DNA of 24,000 nucleotides from an uncultured Ignisphaera sp. (GCA_964447975.1 CAYUUS010000001.1:29774-53773), one strand, 5' to 3'; numbered from the stretch's first letter, positions 1,574 through 21,704 are shown. Notes: a model not told the origin generated them from the sequence alone. Translations and numbers: made by a program.

Positions 1574-1618
1574 CATAGATACAAAGCAATGGAATAGACA
1601 ATAATATATCTTAAATCA

Positions 1619-1630
1619 TTTTTCTTTTTT
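1619..1630 (+). terminator. Oligo-T tract (TTTTTCTTTTTT), candidate archaeal intrinsic terminator for the 517-aa gene
   Basis: T5-C-T6 about 45 nt downstream of the stop at 1571-1573. Archaeal RNA polymerase terminates at oligo-T runs. Confidence 0.4.
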
Positions 1631-1654
1631 ATCTAGTTTGTAAAAGCTTTAAAT

Positions 1655-1686
1655 AGCTTTCTCTATATTGAGAAAAGCTTATATAT
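1655..1686 (+). promoter_or_regulatory. Candidate promoter region of the aquaporin gene: imperfect palindrome AGCTTTCTC-TATATT-GAGAAAAGCT followed by a TATA-like TTATATAT
   Basis: TTATATAT (1679-1686) lies about 40-47 nt upstream of the ATG at 1726, with GAGGTG (1715-1720) between them. The palindrome arms at 1655-1663 and 1670-1679 pair over 9 bp with one bulge. Confidence 0.3.
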
Positions 1687-1725
1687 CCCACTAAGCATAG
1701 TATATCTAATAGATGAGGTGAGTAT

Positions 1726-3450: not shown

Positions 3451-3466
3451 GTTAAAGCACCACCTA

Positions 3467-5317: not shown

Positions 5318-5377
5318 TAGAGTGTCGCCGATAAATTTAATGAATTAATAGTAAAATAAGAAAACATGATAAATGTT

Positions 5378-6826
5378 TTATATTCCCTCCATAAACTCTT
5401 TAATCTTTTCAGAGGTCCAAGTTTTTTCCAAGAACTTTCCAATTTCGCTTGAATCTTGAGGACCTACTATAACTCTCCACTTTGTTGCATCTTCTATTTC
5501 ACCAGAGACTCTAGCTGATTTACCAGGTATTATCAATATTCTATGCTTTACCTTGTTTTCAAGTCCCGTAGACTTTATTAGCTCAGCTACCTTATCACCT
5601 GTGAGCTTTCTCCCTGCTACAGCTACATCAACAGCTAGACCCTCTGTATCTATGACTAAGAGCCATGCATCAACCTTTGATTTTTCAGCGTCGCTTAAAA
5701 CTATTGAATATGTTAAAGCATAGTTTGTAGTTACAAGAACAGGGCTCATCTCACTTGGTTTTCCAATTTCCCTTAATCCAGCAGGCACTGAAACGGGTTT
5801 TCTAGGGTCTGTATATAGCTGAAATCTCCACATTACTTGTGGTAGAATTGTCCACCCATCTAGAGAATGCATTATAACTAAATCAGCGTAACGTGTCATG
5901 AGAATTGTTGTTAATATTGTTTCCCACCACATTATATCTCTTGGATCCCCACTCATCTGAGTCCATACAGAGATAGGTGTTGCTATCAAAGGATATCCAG
6001 CATATCTCCATAGATCATAAATAGCTTTGTATCTTAGCCATGAAAATGCCTTTACCGTATAGGATAACCCGCCTAAGCCTAGAAAACACCCAGGGTCTAA
6101 TGCAATGTCTTTTAAACCTATATCTTCAGTTAAAGTCTTTGCTAAAGATGCTAAACCATCTAAATCACCAGGAGATGCAACGGTGAGTGGAACATCGAAT
6201 CTTTTTGCGATCTCTGCCATTTCTCTCCAGTTATCCTTTGTAGCAGCATAGATCAATGGTCTATGATGGGGTGGGTTAAGAACATTTAGTGCAGCTTCAA
6301 TTATATTTGGATTTGTAGAGCAGAGGATAAGGGGTAGAGAACTATTTTCAACAATTATTGAAACAGTCTTTGCAAATTGCTTAGGGTCATTAGCTGTCGA
6401 TCTAACTGCAATTAGATCAAGCTTAAGCTTCTGCCCTACATATTCATATTCAAAGTTTTCAATCATTTTTATTCTTTTTATAAGGGTTTCTTTATCCATA
6501 GAATCATCGACATCAATTGCTATAGCTGTGGGGTTGTGGTATCTGAGTTCATGTCTATACAAAACATATTTGCCACCAATTTTAACGATTTTGCTAGGGC
6601 TTTTTAGAGTAATTTCCTTTATAGGTGGCAATAGAAGAGATTTTAGCTTTTCATAGCTTTCTCTATACCTCTCCTCCTCAACAATAGGTAAACAATCCTC
6701 AATTTTACTCTCAAGGCTGGCAAGCCTAACTGCAAATGCCATGCAATTTGCTTCACCACATTTCCCACAGTTTGTTTTTGGTAAAAGCTGATATATTTGG
6801 ATTGGTGTCGGAGGCCTCCAGGGCAT
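5378..6826 (-). CDS. cdhE: ACDS gamma subunit (corrinoid Fe-S protein large subunit), 482 aa
   Basis: N-terminal 4Fe-4S motif CGKCGEANCMAFA. GGTGAT SD 5 nt upstream of the ATG. One nt separates the cdhD stop from this start. Confidence 0.92.
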   Translation of the reverse strand: MPWRPPTPIQIYQLLPKTNCGKCGEANCMAFAVRLASLESKIEDCLPIVEEERYRESYEKLKSLLLPPIKEITLKSPSKIVKIGGKYVLYRHELRYHNPTAIAIDVDDSMDKETLIKRIKMIENFEYEYVGQKLKLDLIAVRSTANDPKQFAKTVSIIVENSSLPLILCSTNPNIIEAALNVLNPPHHRPLIYAATKDNWREMAEIAKRFDVPLTVASPGDLDGLASLAKTLTEDIGLKDIALDPGCFLGLGGLSYTVKAFSWLRYKAIYDLWRYAGYPLIATPISVWTQMSGDPRDIMWWETILTTILMTRYADLVIMHSLDGWTILPQVMWRFQLYTDPRKPVSVPAGLREIGKPSEMSPVLVTTNYALTYSIVLSDAEKSKVDAWLLVIDTEGLAVDVAVAGRKLTGDKVAELIKSTGLENKVKHRILIIPGKSARVSGEIEDATKWRVIVGPQDSSEIGKFLEKTWTSEKIKEFMEGI

Positions 6827-6827
6827 T

Positions 6828-8150
6828 TCAAATCACCGGTAGTTTTGTTGAGAGCCAGTTCAAAGCTTTTTCATGTTCCTTTGGCTTAGGCTCTGAAAAT
6901 AGATACTCTCTAATACTCTTCATAGTCTTTACAGTTAGTGGATGAACAAGCATATAGTAATCTGCACCCGTAAGTAGACATATAATGCTTGTCAAGGTCT
7001 CCCACAAAGGTCCTCTTATCTCCTTAGGACCCCAGTAGGGATCCATAGTAATCCAGGCTTCTCTAGCACCCCAAGCATTTGCTGCCCCAACATTAAATGG
7101 ATGTTGAAGTAGCTCATTGCCTATTAAAGCTGCTAGTCTTGCTCTCTCCATGGCTGTAAAACCGTATTCTGTTCCATATCCTATGCCGCCAATATTTAAA
7201 TCAAGTATTATTCTATTCCTTGGTATCCAGTCATATACCTTTCTATTTATTTGCTCAGCTTTATCTAAATCCATTGGAGAGAAGTCTATTACGACGGCAT
7301 TTGTCTTAGCTATATAGGGACATACATTTTCAAGTTTCATATCCAAATTCAAGCTGTTTAATACAAGACCCTCTGATGGAAAAACCTCAGCAATTCTTCT
7401 AAAGACTGCAACATCTTTTTCTGGGTTCCCAGAACCCCCAACAACTATAGGAACTTCAACAGCTTGTAGAATAGCATCAACAGTTTTTACAGCCTCTTCT
7501 GGTGGAGCATCTTTTACTGTTGGATCTGTACTTACAAGGTGAATATCAATTGCTTCAGCACCGTATCTTTCAACCCATATTTTAGCCCATTCAACTGGGT
7601 TGTCAAGAGCATCTCCAAAAGCCAGTCTCACAGCTCTTGGTAAACCAATTCTCATGTCAAATACGTCTCCACCAAATGCTGGTGGATGTGGAGGTTTATA
7701 GCCAGTGAGATAGTAATATGCAGGCATAGTATGGCCACCAACTACTATGGTTTTCTTCCTTGTTCCACCTTCATCTCTAGAAGCACCAAGTTTAACCTCA
7801 ACAACTCTACCACTAAACTGTGGCATTGGTTCCTCAAAAGCTATTTTAGCGAGTTCAACAACTTTTTTAGCAACAACCTCAACAGTTTTTGCAACAGCAT
7901 ATCCAGCTTGAATCTCTGGCTTAGTCTCTGCAACAGCTTTGGGAGGTGTCACAACAACTGGTATCGGTAGCTGTATTTGTCCTTGGGTTGTTAATGTAAT
8001 TTCAAGTTCATCAGCTTCTATCTCAACGTTATAAAGCTCTACAACACCTTTATCCAAAGCCTCAGCAATCTTTGCAAGTAAACTGTATATTGATGCTTCT
8101 TGTCTTGCCTTCTCCTCCTCTTTTACATCTTTAGACTTTTCTCTACTCAT
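6828..8150 (-). CDS. cdhD: ACDS delta subunit (corrinoid Fe-S protein small subunit), 440 aa
   Basis: Position between cdhC and cdhE, size, and the VVGGSGNPEKD-type segment typical of CdhD/AcsD. The start overlaps the cdhC stop as ATGA (8147-8150). AAGGTG lies 7 nt upstream. Confidence 0.9.
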   Translation of the reverse strand: MSREKSKDVKEEEKARQEASIYSLLAKIAEALDKGVVELYNVEIEADELEITLTTQGQIQLPIPVVVTPPKAVAETKPEIQAGYAVAKTVEVVAKKVVELAKIAFEEPMPQFSGRVVEVKLGASRDEGGTRKKTIVVGGHTMPAYYYLTGYKPPHPPAFGGDVFDMRIGLPRAVRLAFGDALDNPVEWAKIWVERYGAEAIDIHLVSTDPTVKDAPPEEAVKTVDAILQAVEVPIVVGGSGNPEKDVAVFRRIAEVFPSEGLVLNSLNLDMKLENVCPYIAKTNAVVIDFSPMDLDKAEQINRKVYDWIPRNRIILDLNIGGIGYGTEYGFTAMERARLAALIGNELLQHPFNVGAANAWGAREAWITMDPYWGPKEIRGPLWETLTSIICLLTGADYYMLVHPLTVKTMKSIREYLFSEPKPKEHEKALNWLSTKLPVI

Positions 8151-9772
8151 TTCCCGACACCTTCACTACTCTTTTTAATAACAATCTTCTCAGCTTTTAT
8201 CTTAACACCTTTAAGTGTTATAGTCATAGGCATACCTGATTGCTGTTGTTGTAGCAGAGGAGTTGGTATTGTAACAGATACTGTTATACCACCAGAAGCC
8301 TGGGTTGTTGTAGTTATAGCTTGTTGAGGTGGTGCAGAGACTGTTGTTACAATAGCAGGTGTTGTAGGTGCAGAGGTTATTGTTGTAGGTGTTATGGTTT
8401 GTGTAGGAGGTGTTGTCTCTACCTTTTCCTCAACCGCTTTCTTTTCCTCAACCTTTTCTTTTTCTCTCCATTTTTGTGTAATTGGATGGCCTTTTTCCAT
8501 CAAGAACTTCTTAAGTTCTTCAACACTTGTAGCTTCTTTCTCTGTTGCTATTTTATCTCTTAACTCGGGAGGTATAGCATCCAAAATTCTCTGCTTTAAC
8601 TCAGATGTCATCCAGACTATTCTTGTCCAACCTCCATCAGCTTGAAATAGCTTTTTACTTCTTAAATAAACCAGTCCTATACCCTGGAACCCAGGAACCT
8701 GTTTACCACCACCAACAGTATCAGCAATTTGGCTAAATCTCAAACCAATTGGTGTTGTACCTGAAAACCCTCTATTTACAATTCCCACAGCATCGAGTTC
8801 TGGAATGTAGAATGTTGCAAGTTCGAAGCACCCACATATTGTTGGTGGATAGTCGAAGAGCGAATATAGCTTTATCCTCTCTATGGCGCCATTAGAAAGC
8901 TTTCTGATAACTTCATTAGCACCCTCATACTCACCTCCGATTGGATCTAAAAGCCTGCCTTTTGGAACTGGCTGTATAGGGCCTTTTGGATCTATCTTAG
9001 CAGCGATTCTTGCGTCAAGCCATGAAATAGCACCACAGGCGGAAGGTCTTTCAGGTGTGATTATACATACATGTGTTGGGGCAAAGGATTGGCAAAGCTT
9101 ACAAGAATAAAATTCATCTGCATCATCATCTCTAAGTGCAAGAGCTCTTCTATCTCTTTCCTCATAAACTTTCAAAGCCTGTGGATGTAAAGCTTCAACA
9201 ACTCTTGCATCTGTAATGAATATTATTCTCATTCTTTCTATTATTGGAAAAGCTGATTTAAATAACCTATATAAAACAGTTCCAATATATTTAAACGATG
9301 TTAAACCTTTTTGCACAGCCTTCTTACTTATTCTAAGCCATATGTCATATCTTTGATTTAAATGCATATATCCTTGGGTATAGTTGCTAAACTCATGGAT
9401 TCTTCTCTCAAGTACACCCTCACCCTCAACCTCAAGACCTTTGCCAGCAGCCTCAATAATAACAGCATATGGTATACTTGAACCCTCTTTCAATTCTGTA
9501 ATATCAGGACCAATAAGAACTATCTTCCCATCTTCAACCTCCTCAAGTCTTCTAATCTTAAATAACTCAAACTTATACCTTACCTTAGGACCTCCAAGCT
9601 CAACATACATCTCCGGGGCTCTGACCCTTTGACCCTCATATTGAGGACCGACATCAACAGGTATATCAGCAAAAACTCCTTTCTCAGGAGGTGGCAATAC
9701 ATCAAATATCTGTATCTTTACATCCTCTGGAAGCTTAACAGGCTCTAATATCCCAGCTTGATTAATAGCCAT
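8147..9772 (-). CDS. cdhC: ACDS beta subunit (acetyl-CoA synthase, A-cluster subunit), 541 aa with an unusually long C-terminal extension
   Basis: A-cluster motifs CQSFAPTHVCIITPERPSACGAISWLDA and Cys-Gly-Cys in PPTICGCFE. AGGTGA lies 7 nt upstream of the ATG. Confidence 0.95.
   Translation of the reverse strand: MAINQAGILEPVKLPEDVKIQIFDVLPPPEKGVFADIPVDVGPQYEGQRVRAPEMYVELGGPKVRYKFELFKIRRLEEVEDGKIVLIGPDITELKEGSSIPYAVIIEAAGKGLEVEGEGVLERRIHEFSNYTQGYMHLNQRYDIWLRISKKAVQKGLTSFKYIGTVLYRLFKSAFPIIERMRIIFITDARVVEALHPQALKVYEERDRRALALRDDDADEFYSCKLCQSFAPTHVCIITPERPSACGAISWLDARIAAKIDPKGPIQPVPKGRLLDPIGGEYEGANEVIRKLSNGAIERIKLYSLFDYPPTICGCFELATFYIPELDAVGIVNRGFSGTTPIGLRFSQIADTVGGGKQVPGFQGIGLVYLRSKKLFQADGGWTRIVWMTSELKQRILDAIPPELRDKIATEKEATSVEELKKFLMEKGHPITQKWREKEKVEEKKAVEEKVETTPPTQTITPTTITSAPTTPAIVTTVSAPPQQAITTTTQASGGITVSVTIPTPLLQQQQSGMPMTITLKGVKIKAEKIVIKKSSEGVGK
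8234..8416 (-). other. Low-complexity Thr/Pro/Gln-rich coding insert (61 aa) inside the cdhC 3' region
   Basis: Translates to TTPPTQTITPTTITSAPTTPAIVTTVSAPPQQAITTTTQASGGITVSVTIPTPLLQQQQSG. The + strand DNA is a GTTGT/GGTGT-rich imperfect repeat. Confidence 0.85.
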
Positions 9773-9845
9773 AACATGTTCACCTAAATAAGATTATAAG
9801 TTATGATATAGAGATTTAATATTTTTATACACCTATACTATCTAT

Positions 9846-10370
9846 TTATTTACTCCCTTTTAACATTGATTCTAAACTACATATATTTTTATACCATATT
9901 TGAAGAGGTAGGGAGGTTAAAGTCCATGTAGCATTTGGCTGTGCATATGGCTCTAGTGATAATGTTTTTACATTTGGCATATAATTTTTAATATAGTTGA
10001 GAATCAACCACTCATATGCATATGGATATCCAATAAACATTATAATATCAAAGTTACTTTTAGCAACTTTTTTAGCTAGCTCCAATGGAAATACAATTTC
10101 ATAGCTTTTAACATCTTTTGCATCAAGAATTTTAACAACCTCTGTTGACGATGTAGCAATAAAAGCATTCAACCCTTGAGCTATTGACACAATCTTTTCT
10201 ATAAGATCTTGCGATGTTAGATCCTTTAACCTCGATATCTGAGACCCTATCGCCATTAACCTATTTCTAAACCTGTTTATAACATCTAAAGCAGTTTTAA
10301 TATCTGTAATTATAGATGCTTTTATAGGCCCTGGTGGGATGTCTCCATAAAGCCAATACTCTAAAGCCAC
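9846..10370 (-). CDS. cdhB: ACDS epsilon subunit, 174 aa
   Basis: Size and position immediately after cdhA, as in archaeal cdh operons. GTG start with GAGGTGAG 5 nt upstream, and this SD overlaps the cdhA TGA stop. Confidence 0.82.
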   Translation of the reverse strand: MALEYWLYGDIPPGPIKASIITDIKTALDVINRFRNRLMAIGSQISRLKDLTSQDLIEKIVSIAQGLNAFIATSSTEVVKILDAKDVKSYEIVFPLELAKKVAKSNFDIIMFIGYPYAYEWLILNYIKNYMPNVKTLSLEPYAQPNATWTLTSLPLQIWYKNICSLESMLKGSK

Positions 10371-10376
10371 AACAAC

Positions 10377-12746
10377 TCACCTCTGCTTTCTATACTTAGC
10401 CACAATTTCATCAAGTAGCGTTGGATTTGATGTAACTGGTTTCTCCCTCCATCCAACCTCTTTAAGATATCTCATAACCTCATCTCTATATGTTATAGGT
10501 ATATCAGCCTCTGTTCTAATATATAGATCTATGTCTGATGGTAGTTTATCACCTCCATAGAATTTCTTATATAGCGATATATAATTAGTTAGCTTTATAG
10601 CTCTACCTTGCGGTGTATCTGCAGGTCTTATACAGAGCTTTGGTATCATAACCATAGCCTCCTCTTTAGACTCTGCAGCATAGAATAGATGTATAGGTGC
10701 AGGACCCAACCACAATTTTTCACCTGTCATAGCGTCATAGCCATACCAAACATCTTCTCTAGAAACATCGCCTAACAACATTCTTCTATATTTCATTCCA
10801 TGTGGCCCAACAATAACTGGTACACCAATTCTCCAAAATCCAGATGCTATAGCTGCAGCTTTTTGGCTCATAGCACCCCATGCAACACCAACAGCACCAA
10901 CTCTATTAAGAATATAATCAGCTATCTCAGCATAATTTGCTCTTAGAGGTAGTCTAGCAAATATGTTGGCAATTTTAATTACAGCACCAGCTATATGCGA
11001 ATTTGAAACACATGATCCAACATTTACAACACCACCAGCTTCAAAAACACCAGAGAATTCTTCATATGGTGTTTTACCTTCTTCATTCTTAGACATTGCT
11101 ATAGCCATAGCAGAACATCCAGAGGCAGTAACAATGTATCTTCTAGCTGCAAACTCCCTCACCATCTCAGCTACATCTTCTGTGCCATCAGGCCAATTAG
11201 CACATCCAACAAATGCTACAACACCTGGTATTGTGCCCAATACAATGTCTCTACCAACAGCTCTAATCTCAGTATCTTGTATAGGACCTCTACCAGCTCT
11301 ACATCTAAACTTCTCACCAGCTATAACATCTTTTGAAGCCGCTAATATAACGCTTAAAATTGGTATACCAACAGGACACACATATTCACATCTTCTACAT
11401 GCAAAACATTTTCTATAGAGATCCTGAAATGCTTTGAAGTCACCAGCGGCAGCTTTCTTCATAGCAACTGAAATCGATAGATTCTGAGGACAGTTTCTTT
11501 CACAATTTCTACAACTTGTACACTTTTTAGCATACTCTATAACAGTTTTCTCATCAAATAAACTCCATTTATATTTAGCTCTAAGAGATGCAAGTCTAAA
11601 TGCTGTCTTCACAGCTACCTCAGCAAGTCTCTCTTCATCTAATATAACAGCACCTGGAATTTTACCAGAGACAAGCTCTTCAACAACGGAATCTGCTGAG
11701 ACATAAGTTCTATCAGGTAATCCTCTTAAAGCCTTGTCAGAAGCAGCTAAGACAACAGCACCCATTTTTCTAGCTTCTTCAACAATATCTGTATAGATAC
11801 ACTGCTCATCTATTACAATAACATCTGGGATACCCGTTCTAATAAACCTTAGCTGCCATGAGATTGGACCTATAATTCTAGCTTTCTTCTTCTCATATCT
11901 TGTAAGGTCATGGGCTGTACAACACAGCCCTACAACCTCAACTTTATCCCTCTGATTAGTCTCCTCTAAAAGATCTATTATAGCAGCTGATGGAAGAACG
12001 TTGTGGCCTATGACAAGTATGACAGGCTTAGATGCATCAACTGTGCCAATGCCTAGATCAACAAGAGGGGATTCTGGATCAGCCTTTGGAAAACCTAATG
12101 CAACTATCTGTGCAACATCTGCTATCTCTAATGCCACATGATCTAACATGCCAAGATGTAAAACCTTAGATTCATAGTCTATCCAATTACCTTCCTGACC
12201 TGTATGAACACTTGCAAGTGTTTGAACAATCTGTCTCTCAACATACTCCAACACTATCTTCAAGTCTCTTAGCGTTCTAGGCTTAACACCTGTAACAAGC
12301 CTTGTTATAGGCATTTCAACATAAACCTCACCTCCTAGATCTATAGGCATATCCTCACCAAATCTCTGAATAAGTTTATCAAGCAACTCTCTAGCATGGC
12401 TAGCATGTGTTGAAGAACCAATTGCACAAACAAGTGTTACAAGCCTTGATTGCTGCTCAGAGAGATTTAAGCCACATGACCCTCTTTTACCTCTAGACAA
12501 ATCACATCTTCCATATGTACATAAACAGCATAGATCACAATATGGTAAATACAATGGCTCATATCTATTAAGTAGAATGTGATCCCATTTCCTTAGCGTT
12601 GCTATTGATGGGAATGGTGTTGGACCTGGTGGCTCCTCCCACTCCTCAACAACATATCCAATACTAATATCCAGGTTTTTAACCTCTGCTATCGATGTCT
12701 TTAACTCATCTAGTTTAATTCTAAGATCTTTATATGGTATAGACAC
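10377..12746 (-). CDS. cdhA: ACDS alpha subunit (Ni-Fe CO dehydrogenase catalytic subunit, archaeal type), 789 aa
   Basis: N-terminal Cys cluster CDLCCLCTYGRCDL...GSCG. Two ferredoxin-type inserts, CTSCRNCERNCP and CFACRRCEYVCP, typical of archaeal CdhA. GTG start 2 nt after the cooC stop. Confidence 0.95.
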   Translation of the reverse strand: MSIPYKDLRIKLDELKTSIAEVKNLDISIGYVVEEWEEPPGPTPFPSIATLRKWDHILLNRYEPLYLPYCDLCCLCTYGRCDLSRGKRGSCGLNLSEQQSRLVTLVCAIGSSTHASHARELLDKLIQRFGEDMPIDLGGEVYVEMPITRLVTGVKPRTLRDLKIVLEYVERQIVQTLASVHTGQEGNWIDYESKVLHLGMLDHVALEIADVAQIVALGFPKADPESPLVDLGIGTVDASKPVILVIGHNVLPSAAIIDLLEETNQRDKVEVVGLCCTAHDLTRYEKKKARIIGPISWQLRFIRTGIPDVIVIDEQCIYTDIVEEARKMGAVVLAASDKALRGLPDRTYVSADSVVEELVSGKIPGAVILDEERLAEVAVKTAFRLASLRAKYKWSLFDEKTVIEYAKKCTSCRNCERNCPQNLSISVAMKKAAAGDFKAFQDLYRKCFACRRCEYVCPVGIPILSVILAASKDVIAGEKFRCRAGRGPIQDTEIRAVGRDIVLGTIPGVVAFVGCANWPDGTEDVAEMVREFAARRYIVTASGCSAMAIAMSKNEEGKTPYEEFSGVFEAGGVVNVGSCVSNSHIAGAVIKIANIFARLPLRANYAEIADYILNRVGAVGVAWGAMSQKAAAIASGFWRIGVPVIVGPHGMKYRRMLLGDVSREDVWYGYDAMTGEKLWLGPAPIHLFYAAESKEEAMVMIPKLCIRPADTPQGRAIKLTNYISLYKKFYGGDKLPSDIDLYIRTEADIPITYRDEVMRYLKEVGWREKPVTSNPTLLDEIVAKYRKQR

Positions 12747-12748
12747 AA

Positions 12749-13540
12749 TTAAGCCCCTGTTTCAAAGCTATATATTTTGTTTTTAAATATTTTGTTTTTG
12801 ACATTTTTCAATTCATTTATCATTGAGGAATAAGGATTGTAGTCGATCAACGACATACCCAATTTATCAGCTTTGATGACATTTTCATCAAATGGTATAT
12901 AACCTAAAATCTCAACACCTCTCAATCTACTCTCTATGAAGAGCCTATCTTCCTCAGACATGATTTTATTTCCAATAACAGCAAACCCTCTAACTCCAAT
13001 ATCTTTAGCAAGTCTATAGATCTCTAAAACAACATCTAGAGATTTAGCTGTAGGCTCAGCAACGCAAATCATTAAATCAATACCTCTAGCAGCCCCTCTA
13101 CTCATAGGCTCTAAACCAGCAACCATATCAACTATAACAACTTCTCTTCTACCTAAAATTAAATGGGATAGTAAAGCCCTTAAAAAAGAATACTCTGGAC
13201 ATAGACATCTCACACCACCCCTCTTCACATAGCCAAGCCTCAAAAGAGTTACATTATCAGGTCCCTTAACACCAAACCTCTCCACAACATCATCAACCCT
13301 TGGATTTAATCTATATGCACCATCAGGCAAAAGCGTTCTTGTCTTAATAAACTCTTCATCAAATAAAACAGGCTTTGAATTAGCTGTTTCAGCATCTATT
13401 CCAAGAGATCTTGCAAGATTTAAACTTGGGTCAGCATCAATGGCTATAACATTGTAGCCTTCTCTTCCAATAAGCCTAGCTAGACAAGCAGCTATAGTTG
13501 TTTTGCCAGCTCCACCCTTCCCAACAAAAACAATTTTCAT
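12749..13540 (-). CDS. cooC: CooC-family nickel-insertion ATPase, 263 aa, first copy directly upstream of cdhA
   Basis: Deviant Walker A GKGGAGKTT. CxC metal motif in GGVRCLCPEYS. ATG start. Confidence 0.9.
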   Translation of the reverse strand: MKIVFVGKGGAGKTTIAACLARLIGREGYNVIAIDADPSLNLARSLGIDAETANSKPVLFDEEFIKTRTLLPDGAYRLNPRVDDVVERFGVKGPDNVTLLRLGYVKRGGVRCLCPEYSFLRALLSHLILGRREVVIVDMVAGLEPMSRGAARGIDLMICVAEPTAKSLDVVLEIYRLAKDIGVRGFAVIGNKIMSEEDRLFIESRLRGVEILGYIPFDENVIKADKLGMSLIDYNPYSSMINELKNVKNKIFKNKIYSFETGA

Positions 13541-13820: not shown

Positions 13821-14504
13821 TTATATATACAAATCTAATATAGTTCCTTTATGAATTGCTGTAGCAACAAGCACACCCTCTACATCAAATCTCTTTAGAG
13901 CCTCAACATCTTCCCTCCCTCTAATGCCACCACCAATATACATTTTACCCTTATAAACATTTCTTACAATATCTATAAGCTGAAGATTAAACCCTTTCAT
14001 AGAGCCTACACGTAAAAGGTCTAAAACTATTAATCCAGCAACATCAATCTTAGATATGGCCTCAACAGCTCTTAAAGCATCAATATACATATTTGCAAAC
14101 TTTGTTTCTAGATTAAAACAATCCAAGCTTACAACTCTTTTATGCAGCTTTTCAATATCATATGGATAACTAATATATTCAGTACCTATAACATATTTAA
14201 TATTATTCAAATCTATTTTTTCAAGCCCCTCTCTTCCAATATCAGCCATGACGTTAAATCCTAATTCAACAGCATGGTTTATAATATTTAGATTATTTCC
14301 TTTACCCATAATAGCATCTAAATCAGCTATATAGATTTCTCTAAAACCATATCTATATAGATTGGAAAGAACATCTTTAGGATTTGGAGAAGATGATATG
14401 ACGCTATTCTCTATAGGTTTATATGTATCTCTCTTCCCTTCAATTGCATGGACAACTAAACCATTCATTATATCTATTACAGGTATCACTTTAACTTTTT
14501 TCAT
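13821..14504 (-). CDS. HisA/HisF-family (beta-alpha)8 barrel paralog of unknown function, 227 aa
   Basis: N-terminal VIPVIDIMNGLVVHAIEGKR and C-terminal IGGGIRGREDVEALKRFDVEGVLVATAIHKG match the HisA/HisF phosphate-binding pattern. No other histidine biosynthesis genes are nearby. Confidence 0.8.
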   Translation of the reverse strand: MKKVKVIPVIDIMNGLVVHAIEGKRDTYKPIENSVISSSPNPKDVLSNLYRYGFREIYIADLDAIMGKGNNLNIINHAVELGFNVMADIGREGLEKIDLNNIKYVIGTEYISYPYDIEKLHKRVVSLDCFNLETKFANMYIDALRAVEAISKIDVAGLIVLDLLRVGSMKGFNLQLIDIVRNVYKGKMYIGGGIRGREDVEALKRFDVEGVLVATAIHKGTILDLYI

Positions 14505-14585
14505 AGTCTACACAGTGAAAGATAGATAAATATAAATTAATTAGCTTATTATAGCTATGATAATTTGTTTTATAAGGTTAATACC

Positions 14586-15674
14586 ATGATTGTTATAGGT
14601 CTTGATATAGGTGGAGCTAATATAAAGGCTGTGAAAGTGGAGTGTTATAGAGATGAAGTAAAAGTTTTATCTATTCTACGTGAATATTTCCCCCTATGGA
14701 TTTATGGTAGAAAAGGGTTAGAGGATAAGCTTAAAGAAATTAAAGAGAGTATTGTAGGTAATGAGAAATATTATGTATCTATATGTATGACAGCTGAGTT
14801 AAGTGATGTATATAGAGTTAAAAAAGATGGTGTTGAACATATTGTTAAGCTATCTATGGATATCTTTAACAATGCTATCGATATAGGATTTGTGTCCACA
14901 GACAAGACTCTGGTTTCTGGTAATGAGGCTATAGATAATTATTTAAAGGTTGCTGGAGCTAATTGGGCTGCTTCTGCATGGTTTTTAGAGAGATATTCAA
15001 AGAGGTGGGGTGTTGAAAATAGTGTATTTATAGATATAGGTAGCACTACAGCAACACTAATTCCTATAATTAATGGAAAGACCTGTATAAGAGGGTTTAC
15101 AGATCCTGAGAAACTTACAGTAGGTGAACTCATTTACACAGGTGTTCTAAGAAGCAATGTTGTCGGTATTGTTAGTAAAATTCCATTAAAAGGTTTATAT
15201 ACAAGGATATGCAATGAAAAATTTGCTTTAATAGGCGATATACATCTTGTACTTGGAAATATATCGAGCAATGAATATACAACAGAAACAGCCGATGGAA
15301 GAGGAAAGTCGGTAGATGAAGCTATGGAGAGAATTGCTAGGATACCATGTGGAGATAAATTAATGATAAATAGCTTTGAGATTAAAGAGATAGCGAGATA
15401 TGTCTATGAGTCACAAATATATATGGTTTTCGAAGCATTGATGCAGATTAGAAGCTATATAGCTTCTCTAGGCCTAGACCCATCAATTTTTAAAGCGATT
15501 ATAGCTGGTATAGGAAAGTTTCTAGCAAGGGAGGCGGCAATAAGAGCAGGGTTTAAAACTATTATAGATATAGACTATATTGTAGGTTCACAGATATCAT
15601 CTATATTCCCAGCATATGCAGCAGCCATGATGATGTGCGAAAAAAGGTGTTTTGATAATGAGGATTGTGGTTAA
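14586..15674 (+). CDS. mfnF: Hydantoinase-A/ASKHA-fold protein of the 'H4MPT-linked C1 transfer pathway' family, MfnF-like (methanofuran biosynthesis). Assignment from memory of family features.
   Basis: ASKHA phosphate motifs IGLDIGGANIK and VFIDIGSTTATLIP. About 362 aa from ATG 14586. The TTG at 14565 would add a 7-aa extension with no support. Overlaps the next gene by 17 nt. Confidence 0.55.
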   Translation: MIVIGLDIGGANIKAVKVECYRDEVKVLSILREYFPLWIYGRKGLEDKLKEIKESIVGNEKYYVSICMTAELSDVYRVKKDGVEHIVKLSMDIFNNAIDIGFVSTDKTLVSGNEAIDNYLKVAGANWAASAWFLERYSKRWGVENSVFIDIGSTTATLIPIINGKTCIRGFTDPEKLTVGELIYTGVLRSNVVGIVSKIPLKGLYTRICNEKFALIGDIHLVLGNISSNEYTTETADGRGKSVDEAMERIARIPCGDKLMINSFEIKEIARYVYESQIYMVFEALMQIRSYIASLGLDPSIFKAIIAGIGKFLAREAAIRAGFKTIIDIDYIVGSQISSIFPAYAAAMMMCEKRCFDNEDCG

Positions 15675-16311
15675 AATCAGTGGAAACCTTATATGGAATG
15701 TTACTACACTTAATAAGTTTCTTGATAGCGTTATAAAGATTCAGGAAAATGATCTAAGGATAGCTCTTGTTCCAGGTGGAAGTATATTTGCAGATATGGT
15801 TAGAGATCTTCAAAAGAAGCTGAAATTCGACGATGCAACAGCTCATTGGATGGCTATAAAGTCTATGGAGACATATGGAGTCTTCATTACATCAATTAAT
15901 AGCTTTATAGAAAATGCAAATTCTATAGAAGAGGTCTATGATATATGGCTAAAAGGCTTCACACCTCTTGTAATGCCCTTTAACATCATTAAAAAATATT
16001 GTGACGAGCTTCCAAAATCATGGTCTGTAACAAGCGATGCAATTACAGTATTTATTGCACATCTTCTTAAAGCTGATATGGCTATATTAACTAAGCTTGT
16101 AGATGGTATAACAGTTGATGGAAAAGTAGCATCTATTTTAAAGGTTGATGAAGTTCCACTGGACCAGGATGTAATTGATAGTTATACACCTGTATTGGTC
16201 AAGAAATATAGAATACCTGTAGCTATAATCAATGCCTATAATATAGAGTCTTTGTATTGTTTATTAAATAAGGCTCCATGTCATTTACCTTATACAGTTA
16301 TAGTGCCATAA
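15658..16311 (+). CDS. mfnE: Amino-acid-kinase-fold protein, MfnE-like (furan methyl phosphate kinase of methanofuran biosynthesis). Assignment from memory of family features.
   Basis: AAK-type N-terminus MRIVVKISGN and LVPGGSIFAD. AGGTG (15645-15649) lies 8 nt upstream of ATG 15658. About 217 aa. Confidence 0.55.
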   Translation: MRIVVKISGNLIWNVTTLNKFLDSVIKIQENDLRIALVPGGSIFADMVRDLQKKLKFDDATAHWMAIKSMETYGVFITSINSFIENANSIEEVYDIWLKGFTPLVMPFNIIKKYCDELPKSWSVTSDAITVFIAHLLKADMAILTKLVDGITVDGKVASILKVDEVPLDQDVIDSYTPVLVKKYRIPVAIINAYNIESLYCLLNKAPCHLPYTVIVP

Positions 16312-16331
16312 TTAAAATATTGGGGCAGTTC

Positions 16332-16982
16332 ATGATAGTCGCATTAATACCTATTAAGACACTTACTAAAGCGAAATCTAGACTTAGACCTATAGAGGAA
16401 TCCATACGTATTGAAATTATAAAAGCTATGTTAAGAGATGTTATAGATGCTTACATAAATTCAAAAAGTGTTGATAGAATTATTTTAATAACACCAGATA
16501 CAAATATAAAGGATGTCGTTAAGGAGTTCGACATAGATATAATCCAAGACGATGGTGTTGGTCAAATCGAGGCTTATTTTAAAGGTATAGAACATGCTTT
16601 AAAAAGTTATGGATATAAATTCAATTCTTTAATTTTCAGTGTAGCTGACACCCCATTTATCTCAAGCCATGATGTCAATGCCATAGCTAGGGTTTATCAA
16701 GAAGGTTTTGAAGCAGTTCTTATACCATCAATTGATGGTGGTACAAATGTAATGCTGCAGAAATATCCTTTAGCAATAGAGCTTATGCATGGGGAAAACA
16801 GTTTTAAAAAACATCTGTTTAAGGCATTCGAAAAAAAAGTTAAGGTGTATATATACAGTTCTATAGGTTCTTTTATAGATATAGATACAGTTGAAGATAT
16901 CGTTGTAGCTAAATATTTATGTGAATATATTTATAGAGATGATAAAGGAACATGCAAGGTTTTATATAAATTATCAATATGA
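16332..16982 (+). CDS. cofC: 2-phospho-L-lactate guanylyltransferase (F420 biosynthesis)
   Basis: N-terminus MIVALIPIKTLTKAKSRL and internal SIDGGTNV ... FIDIDTVEDI match CofC hallmarks. The upstream ATG at 16278 would overlap the mfnE-like gene and add a non-conserved leader. Confidence 0.8.
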   Translation: MIVALIPIKTLTKAKSRLRPIEESIRIEIIKAMLRDVIDAYINSKSVDRIILITPDTNIKDVVKEFDIDIIQDDGVGQIEAYFKGIEHALKSYGYKFNSLIFSVADTPFISSHDVNAIARVYQEGFEAVLIPSIDGGTNVMLQKYPLAIELMHGENSFKKHLFKAFEKKVKVYIYSSIGSFIDIDTVEDIVVAKYLCEYIYRDDKGTCKVLYKLSI

Positions 16983-17006
16983 TAAAGAATCTATATAGTG
17001 ATATAT

Positions 17007-17981
17007 ATGAGAATAGCAATACTTTCAGGTGGTCAAGGAGGGTTAAAGCTTTTCGAAGGATTGAGGGAATTGCTAAATCCAAATGACATAACTATAATAG
17101 CTAATACTGCTGATAATATATGGCTATTAGGCCTATACATAGCCCCAGATATAGATTCTGCGACGTATCTTCTATCTGGATTACTTGATATAAATAAATA
17201 TTGGGGTATTCTCAACGATACTTTCAATGCCTATAATATGATTAGAATACTTGGTGCACTAGACTGGTTTGTGTTAGGTGATAAAGATCTAGCTATACAT
17301 ATAGTTAGAACATATATGCTTAAACAAGGATATAGATTGACAGAAATTACAAAATATATATGCAGTATGCTTAAAGCCAAAGGAGTGGTACTGCCAATGA
17401 GTGATACACATGTAGAAACACATATACATACCGATTTAGGTGTTTTACATGTTCAAGAATACTTAGTGAAATATGCTGCTAAACATGACCCTGAAAAAAT
17501 AAAGGTATTTAACATCGAATACAAAGATATAGATAAAGCCTACGCTACAAAAGAGGTTATAAACACTTTAAATAATGTTGATGCCATTATAATAGGTCCT
17601 AGCAACCCATTCTTAAGTATAAACCCTATACTTAATACCAAAGGCGTTAAAGAATGTATTAGAAAGAGACGAGAAATGGGGATACCTGTTATTGCTGTTT
17701 CGCCTATCAAAGGCAGTAAAGCCTTTACAGGTGTAACACATATTTTAATGAAGTATTTAGGTTTTGAACAATCACCATATAGCATTGCTGAGATATATTC
17801 AGATGTTATATCAAATATCATTATAGATAACTCAGATGGGTATTTAGCACATAGAATTAAAGGGGTATTGGGAATCGATGTAGATTTAGCTGATATAGCT
17901 ATGGATAGTATTGATTCTAAGATAATACTAGCACAAAGGCTTTTAAATATAGTAACCAAACACCAAAATAAGAATAGATAG
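17007..17981 (+). CDS. cofD: 2-phospho-L-lactate transferase (LPPG:FO transferase, F420 biosynthesis)
   Basis: MRIAILSGGQGGLKL ... IIANTADNIWLLGLYIAPDIDSATYLLSGL is the CofD signature region. ATG at 17007 is preferred over GTG at 16998. Confidence 0.88.
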   Translation: MRIAILSGGQGGLKLFEGLRELLNPNDITIIANTADNIWLLGLYIAPDIDSATYLLSGLLDINKYWGILNDTFNAYNMIRILGALDWFVLGDKDLAIHIVRTYMLKQGYRLTEITKYICSMLKAKGVVLPMSDTHVETHIHTDLGVLHVQEYLVKYAAKHDPEKIKVFNIEYKDIDKAYATKEVINTLNNVDAIIIGPSNPFLSINPILNTKGVKECIRKRREMGIPVIAVSPIKGSKAFTGVTHILMKYLGFEQSPYSIAEIYSDVISNIIIDNSDGYLAHRIKGVLGIDVDLADIAMDSIDSKIILAQRLLNIVTKHQNKNR

Positions 17982-17992
17982 AGGTGTTGTAA

Positions 17993-18589
17993 TTGTCTAT
18001 ACCTGCTCCTAGACCTCCACCAAAATATTTTAAATTAAACACAATTTTAACTATTGTCTTATCAGCACTTGCTATACCTATTCACATAGGTAAAATCGAT
18101 TTTCCACTAGCTCCATTTCTAAAATTTGATTTTTGTGGAATTCCATTAGCAGTTGCAGGGTTCATAAACCTATCGCTATCTATTTCATTAGGACTGCCAA
18201 TATTTTATCTAGGTATTTTGGTGATAGGGGCCACCAACCCATTAAGTCCTCTTATGAAGGTTTTAGCAGAAGCTTCAACATATATACCAATGGTTTATCT
18301 ATATAGACGTCTACATAGTAGAAAAATTTCTTATAAAACTTTACTTCTAATTCTTACAGCAGTAGCTATGGTAAGTAGATGTGTGATAATGACTATATTA
18401 AACATCATTATAACACCACTAATAGCAACATTATTTTGGGGTGCACCTTCATATGAAGTAGCATTAACAAAAATCATTATACCTACCCTCCATCTAATAA
18501 ACATATTTAACGCCATCACAGCCCTATATGTTGCTATACTTTCAATGCCAATAATAAGAATAATTTCTAAGGAAGGGTTAATTGATTAA
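17993..18589 (+). CDS. ECF transporter substrate-binding (S) component, 198 aa, about 6 TM segments, specificity unknown
   Basis: Small, very hydrophobic protein with FLKFDFCGIPLAVAGF, resembling the conserved loop-1/TM2 region of RibU-type S components. Followed directly by EcfA-A' and EcfT. TTG start with GAGGTG (17981-17986) 6 nt upstream. Confidence 0.7.
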   Translation: MSIPAPRPPPKYFKLNTILTIVLSALAIPIHIGKIDFPLAPFLKFDFCGIPLAVAGFINLSLSISLGLPIFYLGILVIGATNPLSPLMKVLAEASTYIPMVYLYRRLHSRKISYKTLLLILTAVAMVSRCVIMTILNIIITPLIATLFWGAPSYEVALTKIIIPTLHLINIFNAITALYVAILSMPIIRIISKEGLID

Positions 18590-20042
18590 TACTAAAAACA
18601 TTATTGAAATCAAAGACCTATGGTTTAAATATAAAAATAGTGAATGGATATTAAAAAACCTTAAACTGGCTATAGCCAAGGGAGAATCAACACTAATAAT
18701 TGGATCCAGTGGTGTAGGCAAAACAACATTAACTAGAGTGCTAACAGGCTCTGCTATGCATATCTATGGTGGTGAGATAAAGGGTTATATTGAGATAAAT
18801 GGTAGAGATATATCTTATCTATCTGCAGAAGAGTTAAGGAACATTATCCAAGTAATCAACCAGAATCCATATACACATTTCATCTATCCAAGGATAATAG
18901 ATGACCTAGTTAACTATGCATATACATTTTATAGAGATTTACCTAAAGCTATAAATGTGGTGAAAGAGATAAGTCGATGGCTGAATATAGAAGGAGTACT
19001 AGAGAAGAATATTTTTGAAGTATCAGGAGGACAATGCAAAAAAATTGCAATAGCAAAAGCACTTATTCCAAATCCCGAAATACTTATAATGGATGAGCCT
19101 CTCATGTGGCTAGATGACAATGGTTATAGAGAGTTGATCAGTATTTTGAAGATGTTTAAAAAGATGGGAAAGACTATTGTATTGCTTGAACATAGATTTC
19201 TACCACTATTAAGCTATGTAGACAGTATATATAGATTTATTGATGGGAATCTTGAAAAGATTCAACCAAAGGATATAGCTATGTTGAAAGATGTAGAGAA
19301 CACAGCTTTTCAAATAAAGATCTATGAAAAAAGCAACATTTCTAATATATATGAAGATAATATTGATAATTACGATGTTGTTTTAACAAATATATGGTTT
19401 AGATTTCAATATAGCGACTGGATTTTAAAAAACATAGATATTGCTATACCGAAAAACAGAACCGTGATTATATATGGTCTTAACGGCTCTGGAAAGTCTA
19501 CATTATTAAAAGTTATAGCTGGTTATCTAAAGCCTCAAAAAGGCTTTATTAAAAGATTTGGTAGAGCTATATATATACCACAAAATGTTTCTCTATTCTT
19601 TACAGAGGAATCTATATACAGCGAGTTAAAAAACATATGTTTACGAAGTTTAGATAGAGATATATGTGTTGAAAAAGGCATAGAACTTTTGAAGAGCTAT
19701 GGGTTTGATGATGTTGATAAAACACCGTTTGCTCTTTCATGGGGGCAGCAGATGAGATTAGCAGTTCTTCTTTCATTGATAGGAAGATACGATATTCTAA
19801 TACTCGATGAACCTTTTACAGGTCTTAGCTATATTGATAGATTAAAATTGATTGAACTTCTCTATAGAATACCCTATACAAAAATTATAGCCGTAAGTAA
19901 CCTAGAATCGCTAGCTCTTCTAGCTAGAAACTGCAACACAATATATATGCTATCCAATGGTGTTGTTAAACCCATTGATATAGAGTTCAATAAAATGTTT
20001 CCTGATATGATTTACAAATGGTGTGAAGCTGTATATAAGTGA
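18582..20042 (+). CDS. Fused ECF transporter ATPase EcfA-EcfA' (two ABC nucleotide-binding domains), 486 aa
   Basis: NBD1 has Walker A GSSGVGKTT, signature VSGGQ, Walker B ILIMDEP and an H-loop His (LLEHRF). NBD2 has Walker A GLNGSGKST, signature LSWGQ and Walker B ILILDEP, with no obvious H-loop His (IIAVSNLES). TTG start overlaps the S gene by 8 nt. Confidence 0.9.
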   Translation: MINTKNIIEIKDLWFKYKNSEWILKNLKLAIAKGESTLIIGSSGVGKTTLTRVLTGSAMHIYGGEIKGYIEINGRDISYLSAEELRNIIQVINQNPYTHFIYPRIIDDLVNYAYTFYRDLPKAINVVKEISRWLNIEGVLEKNIFEVSGGQCKKIAIAKALIPNPEILIMDEPLMWLDDNGYRELISILKMFKKMGKTIVLLEHRFLPLLSYVDSIYRFIDGNLEKIQPKDIAMLKDVENTAFQIKIYEKSNISNIYEDNIDNYDVVLTNIWFRFQYSDWILKNIDIAIPKNRTVIIYGLNGSGKSTLLKVIAGYLKPQKGFIKRFGRAIYIPQNVSLFFTEESIYSELKNICLRSLDRDICVEKGIELLKSYGFDDVDKTPFALSWGQQMRLAVLLSLIGRYDILILDEPFTGLSYIDRLKLIELLYRIPYTKIIAVSNLESLALLARNCNTIYMLSNGVVKPIDIEFNKMFPDMIYKWCEAVYK

Positions 20043-20048
20043 TTTAAA

Positions 20049-20774
20049 ATGCTAAGAGATGTAGCTTATTCCTTCATCTATAACTCTTCTACAAGTCTAA
20101 GCATTGTTACAAGAATATCAATCCCCGTTACCATAGTTCTATATCTTTTAGTCAACCCTTTTCTAAAATTAAAACCACTAGCAAATTTAATTTATATAAT
20201 ACCTGCACTTCTCATGGTTTTAACAATTATTTGTATAAGTGGTAGTTTCAAAAGAATTCTAGGAGGGTTGCAATTTGTTGCGCTCTTCATAGTGATAGGC
20301 TTAATAATAAATCTATTAGCAGGAATCTTTGGCTTCTGGACCACTAACCTAGTTAATGTGGCTATAGCTTCAATGAGAGGAGCCATAATGTTTATGACCA
20401 TAACCTTGATATTTCAATGGGTTAAAATAGAAGAGATTCAATGGCTTTTAGAGAAAATAGGTCTAGGTAGACTAGGAGTATCTATAGCTATAGCATTTTC
20501 ACAACTTCCACATATTATAGTGATGTATCTAGAAGCTCTAGTAACATTGAAATTAAAGTATGGCTCAAGATATCTCTACAAAGTTTTATTGCCATTAACT
20601 CTTTATACCATAAACCATGCCAGAGAAGTTGCAGAGGCTATATATATCCATGGAATGCCTAGATGTTTTGTAGATTTCTCAATAAAGATCAAAGATATTA
20701 TAATAATGATTTTATTCATATTTATTTTATTGATAGCATTATCTATATCGCTTATCATGAATGCTTTTTTGTAA
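20049..20774 (+). CDS. ecfT: ECF transporter transmembrane (T) component, EcfT/CbiQ family, 241 aa
   Basis: Polytopic membrane protein immediately after the ECF ATPase. Its C-terminal half (SQLPHIIVMYLEALVTLKLKYGS ... INHAREVAEAIYIHGM) has the layout of the two EcfT coupling helices. Confidence 0.75.
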   Translation: MLRDVAYSFIYNSSTSLSIVTRISIPVTIVLYLLVNPFLKLKPLANLIYIIPALLMVLTIICISGSFKRILGGLQFVALFIVIGLIINLLAGIFGFWTTNLVNVAIASMRGAIMFMTITLIFQWVKIEEIQWLLEKIGLGRLGVSIAIAFSQLPHIIVMYLEALVTLKLKYGSRYLYKVLLPLTLYTINHAREVAEAIYIHGMPRCFVDFSIKIKDIIIMILFIFILLIALSISLIMNAFL

Positions 20775-20810
20775 TGAAAGCTATCAAGATAGATTTATGG
20801 TAGAAGCCAT

Positions 20811-21704
20811 TTGCTGTATACTGACCGTTTAAGAAATAAATATAAATTGTATATCATTAGAAAGCCATTTAGATACTGGTTTCCTGGAACAAATGTTGTA
20901 AAAGAGATAGTAAAGGTTTATGGCAATAAAATTAGAGATGGAGACATCATAGTTATATCTGATAAAGCTCTTAATATAGCTCTCGGCAACATATATGATG
21001 AAAGTAATATATATGTCGACCCTATAACAAATGCAATGACCTTTATCACATCAAAGATTCTCTGGGGATATTTCCTTAAAGGAATATTTATAAATATAGA
21101 TACAGTTAGACTTATAAATGAGACACCTTTAAAGCTTCTTGCAAAACATAAGAAACTGGCATTGTCTATTGGTGGATTGAAACATTTCTTAAAACCTCTT
21201 TCTGAAGCCGGTATAGATGTGACAAATCTTCCGTATCAATATGTGTCTATACCTATTAAGAATATCTCTAATGTTGTTAGAGAGATAAAAGATGCTATAG
21301 ATAGAAAATTATTAGTAGATATAAATGTTCTTGTTGTTGACACGGATAAATGTTTTGTCTTCAAAGACATAAAATCTCTAGCAATTGCTTCAAGGCCTTC
21401 TGCTATAAAAGGTGTTATAGATCTTGGCTTTATTGCCTATATTCTTGGAAAAACCTTGAAGAACCTATTTGAGGTGTTTCCAACACCAACAGCATATCAA
21501 GGCATTTGGCTAGGACTCTATACAATACTTAGATTGGCGCATATAGCTGAGAGATTCCGTGGGCATGGAGCTGGGAGGAATATCATTGAGATGAGTAGAA
21601 TGTTAGGTGTAAAGAGTTTTGAGTGTGTTACATGGTCTTCTCTTAGAAAAATCAAACACTATCCTGTTATATTACTAAGGTTTAAAAATAAAAAATTATG
21701 TTAA
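20811..21704 (+). CDS. Divergent CofE-fold (F420-0:gamma-glutamyl ligase superfamily) protein, 297 aa. Start codon uncertain (TTG 20811 or TTG 20847).
   Basis: Motif-level resemblance to CofE: PGTNVVKEI ... DGDIIVISDKAL, EAGIDVTN and VLVVDTD. The rest is not recognisably conserved by eye. Confidence 0.45.
   Translation: MLYTDRLRNKYKLYIIRKPFRYWFPGTNVVKEIVKVYGNKIRDGDIIVISDKALNIALGNIYDESNIYVDPITNAMTFITSKILWGYFLKGIFINIDTVRLINETPLKLLAKHKKLALSIGGLKHFLKPLSEAGIDVTNLPYQYVSIPIKNISNVVREIKDAIDRKLLVDINVLVVDTDKCFVFKDIKSLAIASRPSAIKGVIDLGFIAYILGKTLKNLFEVFPTPTAYQGIWLGLYTILRLAHIAERFRGHGAGRNIIEMSRMLGVKSFECVTWSSLRKIKHYPVILLRFKNKKLC

Follow-up and report, generated by a model that had tools for sequence, protein, structure and literature searches.

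A divergent archaeal ECF transporter encoded within a cofC-cofD gene unit: a candidate importer of deazaflavin precursors of F420

Which compound is imported by a transporter that is encoded among the genes for the biosynthesis of coenzyme F420? This question is raised by a stretch of 24,000 nucleotides from an uncultured Ignisphaera sp. (GCA_964447975.1 CAYUUS010000001.1:29774-53773; hereafter the window, which denotes this whole stretch and from whose first nucleotide all positions are counted). Here, genes for an energy-coupling factor (ECF) transporter, i.e. a substrate-binding S component, a fused ATPase (AA') and a transmembrane T component, lie between cofD and a gene of the CofE fold. 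A preliminary description of positions 16332–21704, made from the sequence alone, had proposed that the transporter imports the deazaflavin FO, which the flanking enzymes would convert to F420. Based on comparative sequence analysis and structure prediction, we consider that the module may supply CofD by importing FO or a deazaflavin related to it; in this reading, a flavin-type ECF importer was recruited into the F420 pathway and retuned. We assign it a probability of about 0.5. Here, we infer the ligand, the direction of transport and the dependence on external FO.

The window encodes a co-directional unit of eight genes, all on the plus strand, that extends from 14565 onwards and in which neighbouring genes overlap or are separated by at most 36 nt. 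The preliminary description let the unit begin at 16332, which is probably too late, but the six genes that it listed (cofC, cofD, S, the fused double ATP-binding cassette (ABC) ATPase, T and a gene with a PF01996 domain) are indeed co-directional, with the junctions as it had read them from the sequence. Among these, cofC (16332–16982) encodes the 2-phospho-L-lactate guanylyltransferase (PF01983; TIGR03552 with 110 bits, cutoff 105). Its longest open reading frame (ORF) spans 16278–16982, and the ATG read in the sequence at 16332 is the likely start. The following gene, cofD (16998–17981), encodes the FO-consuming LPPG:FO 2-phospho-L-lactate transferase (TIGR01819 with 263.3 bits, cutoff 257.45). 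Both proteins pass their NCBIfam equivalog cutoffs, and the best match of the window CofD among the PDB sequences is the CofD of M. mazei (3c3d, E=1e-55). The stop codon TAG of cofD is located at 17979–17981 and the start codon TTG of the S gene at 17993, i.e. 11 nt beyond cofD. A Shine-Dalgarno-like GAGGTG (17981–17986) shares the last base of this TAG and lies 6 nt ahead of the TTG. The S and ATPase genes share 8 nt, ATPase and T are separated by 6 nt, and T and the CofE-like gene by 36 nt; all these junctions match the earlier reading exactly. The S, A and T genes are thus adjacent and co-directional. A scan of the window with Rfam yielded zero matches and hence no riboswitch.

Is the module an ECF transporter, as had been supposed? 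The S component (17993–18589, 198 aa) matches nothing in Pfam even at E<=10. Its AlphaFold model, which is built on eight homologues, has six helices and a predicted local distance difference test score (pLDDT) of 75. The top PDB matches of the model in a Foldseek search are the riboflavin-binding S components RibU of S. aureus (3p5n) and T. maritima (5kbw), with a probability of 1.0 and template modelling (TM) scores of 0.59–0.76, and ThiT and PanT rank after RibU. At the sequence level, the profile of the S family has a single match in the PDB, the RibU of T. maritima (TmRibU, E=0.03), via the loop-1 motif FP..P(F/Y)LK(F/Y)D and the GDPVG region. A homologue that is 40% identical to the window S (P0005) matches PF12822, the general model of ECF S components, at E=2e-4, which is under the gathering score. 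The family is small, with just 175 relatives found by a HMMER scan of 1.84 billion representatives. Of 81 remote relatives, 56 match PF12822 and 15 match the FolT family model. The closest named homologue of S, at 66% identity, comes from a metagenome-assembled genome (MAG) of Ignisphaera sp., and UniRef lists one T homologue under Ignisphaera aggregans. By sequence and predicted fold, the closest characterised relative of the S component appears to be RibU.

The fused EcfA-EcfA' ATPase (18582–20042, 486 aa) contains two PF00005 domains, and its best NCBIfam models are both ECF ATPases, albeit below their cutoffs (ECF_ATPase_2 with 174.9 bits, cutoff 330; ECF_ATPase_1 with 157.6 bits, cutoff 315). 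The first nucleotide-binding domain is canonical (VSGGQ, LLEHR). In the second, the signature reads LSWGQ and an Asn is found where the His of the H-loop is expected (IIAVSNL), which suggests one degenerate ATP site. The protein encoded next (20049–20774, 241 aa) is a divergent EcfT-like transmembrane component, for which no match was found in Pfam (E<=10), in NCBIfam or, with a profile search, in the PDB; the PF02361 model is not reached, and hhalign gives a probability of only 1.3% for a relationship to canonical CbiQ. We call this protein EcfT-like because of the fold search, which is the sole support: the top five Foldseek matches of its AlphaFold model (pLDDT 77) are EcfT or CbiQ chains (including 4huq_T, 4rfs_T and 5x3x Q), with probabilities of 0.87–0.99 and modest TM scores of 0.44–0.52. 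T components are expected to carry two Ala-Arg-Gly motifs in their coupling helices. In the window protein, one near-invariant Arg is present (R192, AR..AEA.Y.HG), and the other expected site reads KLKYG. From the folds of S and T and the best models of the ATPase, S-AA'-T appears to be a divergent, dedicated (group I) ECF module, in agreement with the identity that had been proposed for it.

The three components recur together elsewhere. A metagenome scan with the S motif resulted in 69 loci, which together with the loci found earlier and the window amount to 75, and we clustered the ORFs near S. The S proteins form one family in 74 of the 75 loci. An ATPase from one sequence cluster is encoded near S in 58 loci, mostly directly after S and usually as a fused AA', and 46 loci contain a T protein of one and the same family. 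Judging from this clustering, S-AA'-T seems to be a coherent small archaeal system that is found mostly in hot-spring metagenomes. We conclude that the locus defines a previously unannotated archaeal ECF family whose S and T components escape the Pfam models.

What links this family to F420? S genes embedded next to cofC and cofD are confined to one clade, which comprises the window and the loci L017, L001/L002/L019, L012/L016 and L018. This clade is monophyletic and nested within the family in a neighbour-joining tree. It represents four to five Ignisphaera-like lineages with S proteins that are 66–71% identical to that of the window (92% in L017), and these lineages retain the gene order cofC-cofD-S-(AA')-T-CofE-like. 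Since the arrangement recurs in loci where S is only 66–71% identical, it goes beyond chance. Furthermore, L001 and L012 show a 4-nt overlap (TTGA) of cofD with S, and we take the link between the two genes to be conserved and, because of this overlap, probably translational. A scan of genome contigs with the window CofD recovered only L016, which is located on the same contig as L012, so that the breadth of the synteny across named genomes is thin.

A second case was found outside this clade. In a Sulfolobales MAG (GCA_025059075.1, locus L015), a canonical ECF module with a PF12822 S component, separate EcfA and EcfA' and a PF02361 CbiQ abuts cofD-cofC. This module is convergent with cofD, with overlapping 3' ends, and is located between ftr/mtd and genes for a CofE-like protein, an FrhB-like protein and CofE. 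The single significant match of its S component among the PDB sequences is the RibU of S. aureus (E=2.7e-7). The protein is a distant homologue of the window S family (hhalign probability 97.6%) and forms a separate deep branch in the tree. We regard L015 as a second, independent RibU-like module linked to cofCD. A transporter gene is thus recurrently linked to the gene of the FO-consuming enzyme, by the adjacency of cofD and S in four to five lineages and by L015, and the synteny with cof genes is not confined to the window genome.

The third line of evidence comes from the S proteins themselves. FO differs from riboflavin by an ionisable 8-hydroxyl group. We searched for positions with one fixed residue in the cofCD clade and another fixed residue in 38 relatives, and detected five positions that are 100% invariant in the relatives and changed in the clade (36, 82, 85, 144 and 167). 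Two of the changes replace a Pro, by Asp36 in loop 1 and by His167. Asp is replaced by Asn82 and Gly by Ser85 in the G-D-P-[IV]-G loop before transmembrane helix 4 (TM4), and Trp is replaced by Ile144 at the end of TM5. Column 82 is Asp in both RibUs (D81 in the S. aureus protein, SaRibU), and column 144 is Tyr in SaRibU (Y139). Both in our own alignment and in a HMMER alignment to 3P5N, the S component of L015 has Asn at column 82 and Leu or Ile at column 144. According to these alignments, the two independently cofCD-linked RibU-like S components have apparently each lost the acidic residue at column 82 and the aromatic one at column 144. TmRibU reportedly has an electronegative pocket, and its high-affinity binding of riboflavin is said, in work by Karpowich and colleagues from 2016, to require an aromatic residue where TM5 ends on the extracellular side. 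The changes would fit a specificity that is shifted to a flavin analogue such as FO, and the neutralisation of the Asp would fit an anionic ligand. Other, polar residues are conserved throughout: K89, E93, R129, N137 and N173 are present in all 25 aligned family sequences, including the cofCD-linked clades. The preliminary description had counted the placement of S inside a characterised clade with conserved ligand contacts as evidence that would speak against FO. Among characterised proteins, RibU is the closest, but two positions that are shared with RibU are changed: the window S has retained neither the Asp of GDPVG in loop 3 (Asn82) nor an aromatic residue where TM5 ends (Ile144), and because of these two losses we do not file it as a RibU.

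If this reading is correct, the module would belong to the dedicated (group I) ECF importers, and its S component, derived from RibU, would have been retuned from flavins to a deazaflavin. Its substrate would most likely be FO (7,8-didemethyl-8-hydroxy-5-deazariboflavin), although a longer form (F420-0 or F420-n) is possible. The S component would capture the ligand outside the cell, and the release into the cytoplasm would be driven by T as a scaffold with the fused ATPase A-A'. The gene two positions upstream of S encodes CofC, which would supply the activated phospholactyl donor. CofD, whose gene lies immediately upstream of S and is presumably translationally coupled to it in the relatives, would join this donor to FO and yield F420-0, to which a CofE encoded about 6 kb downstream would add the glutamates. 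The resulting F420 would serve the F420-dependent enzymes of one-carbon (C1) metabolism that are encoded nearby, i.e. Mtd and the FrhB-like protein.

FO is released by its producers and is used by organisms that are unable to make it, e.g. as a chromophore of photolyase. We know of no FO or F420 transporter that has been characterised. The preliminary description had likewise stated that no FO importer is known, and this agrees with the literature: a review of F420 from 2021 (PMC8498797) mentions no FO uptake system, and a full-text literature search on F420 in combination with cofG, cofH, salvage and ECF gave nothing relevant. The review does describe a putative ABC exporter of the finished cofactor, which is encoded beside the gene cluster for 3-phosphoglycerate-containing F420 (3PG-F420) in Mycetohabitans (Paraburkholderia) rhizoxinica. 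That the module would be the first dedicated deazaflavin salvage system, with an FO-specific ECF importer feeding CofD, is a possibility that we put forward tentatively.

Does the gene downstream of T lend further support to a role in F420 synthesis? This gene (20811–21704, 297 aa) matches PF01996 with 42.8 bits (threshold 25) and the CofE equivalog TIGR01916 with only 20.9 bits (cutoff 180.65). It shares the PF01996 domain with canonical CofE but is about 45 aa longer, fails the equivalog and has no match among the PDB sequences. About 6 kb downstream on the contig of the window, there is a second PF01996 (F420_ligase) gene of 252 aa, the canonical length of CofE, whose neighbours encode an FrhB-like protein, Ftr, Mtd and formylmethanofuran dehydrogenase. 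The last gene of the unit is a CofE paralogue and not CofE, and the downstream gene is, by domain and length, probably the true cofE. The paralogue forms a family of 99 clusters with proteins of about 285–305 aa, in Ignisphaera, Desulfurococcaceae, Sulfolobales, Methanomethylicia and Bathyarchaeia, and three loci contain both the paralogue and a separate 252-aa PF01996 gene. Often its neighbours are RimK-type ATP-grasp ligases, MfnB, Ftr and Mtd, and cofCD is not close by. Loci with the paralogue, besides the window, are L013/L014, L086/L087, L088/L089 and L015. The earlier use of this gene as evidence for F420 tailoring could thus not be sustained, as its family also adjoins methanofuran-type genes where cofCD is not near. 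The paralogue may glutamylate another C1 cofactor, of the methanofuran or methanopterin type.

The two genes at the start of the unit point in a similar direction. The first (14565–15674) encodes an MfnF-like protein that matches the 'H4MPT-linked C1 transfer pathway' model TIGR03123, named after tetrahydromethanopterin (H4MPT), with 294.6 bits (cutoff 244.1), as well as PF01968; with the MfnF model NF040623, it scores 216 bits, which is under the cutoff. The second (15652–16311) encodes an MfnE-like protein of the amino-acid-kinase family (PF00696; 105.9 bits with the MfnE model NF040622, under the cutoff of 300). Based on the longest ORFs, the MfnF-like gene overlaps the MfnE-like gene by 23 nt, and the latter overlaps the following gene by 34 nt. 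TIGR03123-type 'H4MPT-linked C1 transfer' genes are known in methylotrophs and methanogens; here, together with the MfnE-like gene, such a gene sits in one unit with cofC-cofD. The unit is flanked by genes for MfnB, Ftr and Mtd, by carbon monoxide dehydrogenase/acetyl-CoA synthase (CODH/ACS) genes and by a HisA/HisF-related 'H4MPT-linked' gene.

Outside the cofCD clade, the neighbourhoods of the S family are dominated by another theme. A gene for the flavin prenyltransferase UbiX follows directly downstream of T in eight loci. In 12 loci, S is preceded by a divergently oriented nitroreductase gene, and most of these 12 also have genes for flavin reductase, ThiF and PALP close by. Other clades of the family have genes for CinA-type proteins, DUF763, TatD, ribose-5-phosphate isomerase or Fae nearby. 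Flavoenzyme genes are the most recurrent neighbours, which together with the resemblance to RibU suggests that the ancestral substrate of the family was a flavin.

The main alternative is therefore an ordinary archaeal ECF importer of riboflavin or flavin mononucleotide (FMN), i.e. an analogue of RibU, that is co-expressed in an island of cofactor genes without any particular link to F420. By both sequence and fold, no characterised protein is closer to S than RibU, the wider family is found beside UbiX, nitroreductase and flavin reductase genes, and the five residues conserved in all 25 sequences are kept in the cofCD-linked clades too. We take this alternative as a serious rival, but as the less likely reading: the coupling of cofD and S is conserved over lineages with 66–71% identical S proteins, a second RibU-like module is found independently beside cofD-cofC in L015, and two residues that RibU shares and that never vary among the 38 relatives, the Asp and the aromatic one, are gone from both cofCD-linked clades. 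A precursor of another C1 cofactor, such as a pterin or aminobenzoate piece of a methanopterin-type cofactor, a building block of methanofuran or a product that is handled by the CofE-like ligase, would account for the MfnF-like and MfnE-like genes that open the unit, for its flanks with the HisA/HisF-related gene, MfnB, Ftr, Mtd and CODH/ACS, and for the CofE-like gene that directly follows T and elsewhere accompanies mfn genes and RimK-type ligases; the 15 of 81 remote S relatives that match the FolT model would fit as well. Yet the solved relatives that are found by sequence are RibUs only, and not FolT, PanT or ThiT, S keeps cofD as its physical partner (through overlap or Shine-Dalgarno coupling), and the Sulfolobales module abuts cofD-cofC rather than mfn genes, so that we regard such a substrate as improbable.

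Several observations weigh against FO import. Most family members are located beside flavoenzyme genes, and the ancestral and perhaps also the current substrate may be riboflavin or FMN. The unit also holds methanofuran-type genes, so that its location alone points to 'C1 cofactor supply' and not to FO specifically. An Asn at column 82 is not unusual among S proteins that are more remote (19 of 135), and the functional role ascribed to Asn82 and Ile144 is putative, as it derives from alignment and from what is reported for RibU. The module of L015 is convergent with cofD and is hence not co-transcribed with it. As to an FO synthase, a search of the window, of some 45 kb of the contig and of roughly 290 kb from the related loci yielded no radical-SAM (S-adenosylmethionine) ORF of the CofG/CofH type with a CxxxCxxC motif, which speaks weakly for FO import; for the window, this confirms the earlier observation. 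CofG and CofH genes are, however, often unlinked to cofCD, and the absence of a nearby FO synthase, which concerns loci and not whole genomes, means little. Finally, three of the four related lineages with a readable S-T junction (L001, L012 and L018) have no ATPase gene at the locus, and T follows S after about 120–160 nt (10621–10740 in L001; 9068–9226 in L012). Such a pair of S and T without A at one locus is an unusual arrangement of ECF genes. As most of the family has S-AA'-T, the absence is most simply explained by loss, and as S and T are intact and conserved, the ATPase would presumably be supplied in trans.

This absence might also indicate a module that is decaying or no longer working, with S and T as remnants or as a facilitator that does without ATP hydrolysis. 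The degenerate motifs in the second nucleotide-binding domain of the window, the frameshifts in the ATPase gene of L017 and a T component that is unrecognisable by sequence could be read in the same way. We consider decay very improbable, as the S and T ORFs are intact, with 59–71% identity in all lineages and with the family-invariant residues kept, as S, AA' and T of the window are intact with coupled junctions, and as ATPases could come in trans. In L017, which is the closest relative with 92% nucleotide identity, the ATPase gene (3670–5140) contains several frameshifts near the first signature and Walker B. The contig appears to be generally indel-prone, with other genes truncated too, and we rejected decay of this gene in favour of the likelier assembly indels.

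How does the proposed deazaflavin importer compare to known systems? With ECF-RibU (S. aureus 3P5N, T. maritima 5KBW, Listeria/Lactococcus), it has in common the six-helix fold of S, the loop-1 motif and the Asn in TM5, and the predicted class of ligand is also flavin-like. Bacterial RibU usually belongs to group II and shares an EcfAA'T module, whereas S, AA' and T are here dedicated and adjacent. Furthermore, the window S falls under every Pfam threshold for S families, carries Asn82 and Ile144 in place of the Asp and the aromatic residue of RibU, and is encoded within cofC-cofD and not under flavin control. In its gene arrangement, the module resembles the dedicated group I systems CbiMNQO, NikMNQO and BioMNY, where S, T and A are likewise encoded in one operon by the genes that use the imported compound, with fused or paired ABC ATPases and a scaffold of the CbiQ/EcfT fold. 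It differs from these in substrate class and S family, in a T component that is too divergent for PF02361 and in an ATPase gene that is off-locus in three lineages. The ABC genes of M. rhizoxinica (PMC8498797) are the only other transporter genes linked to F420 biosynthesis genes that we found in the literature; however, these are bacterial and non-ECF, and their putative function is the export of the finished cofactor to the fungal host.

If FO import is confirmed, some Thermoproteota with the Wood-Ljungdahl pathway in hot springs would be FO auxotrophs that rely on the FO of their neighbours, and RibU-type binders would have become deazaflavin binders at least twice, by the same two substitutions. 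A defined FO importer would explain the presence of F420 in organisms with only cofC, cofD and cofE, and it would open deazaflavin cross-feeding within microbial communities to experimental tests. It would also be a biotechnological tool to load FO into hosts engineered for F420 and would provide a natural RibU-like pair to study the discrimination between flavin and deazaflavin. On comparative evidence, the locus is thus a testable candidate for the first known deazaflavin importer.

Lastly, we describe further observations on related modules and on the surroundings of the unit. In six loci (L003, L004, L026, L027, L031 and L036), S is about 40% identical to that of the window (L003 S at 10001–10603) and S-AA'-T is flanked by a UbiX gene on one side and a divergently oriented mevalonate kinase gene on the other, which fits a supply of flavin for the archaeal mevalonate pathway that depends on prenyl-FMN. 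In a Desulfurococcaceae MAG, an ECF module with a PF07155 S component, a fused ATPase and a T-like protein that Pfam does not recognise (L088 2199–4977; L089 5038–7816) lies about 2 kb upstream of a CofE-like gene. We rejected this third module as a case of recurrence, as its S component matches that of 4HZU and belongs to an unrelated family. In L089, genes for an FMN reductase, a NUDIX protein and a CTP_transf_like protein (possibly of the RibL type) are also near.

Upstream of the unit, the HisA/HisF-related gene (TIGR00734, slightly under the cutoff) is divergent from the MfnF-like and MfnE-like genes (13821–16311 for the three). The region 2668–13540 on the minus strand contains a complete archaeal CODH/ACS cluster (CdhA, E, C, D and D-like) together with genes for RACo and two CooC-type ATPases. 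This Ignisphaera-like crenarchaeote from a hot spring thus carries the carbonyl branch of the Wood-Ljungdahl pathway. The CODH/ACS block is not found at this position in the related MAG locus L001. At the beginning of the window (20–2442), a DUF2193 gene (673.9 bits) is followed by a gene for a MIP-family channel, and this pair is kept beside the C1 island in L001 and L019.

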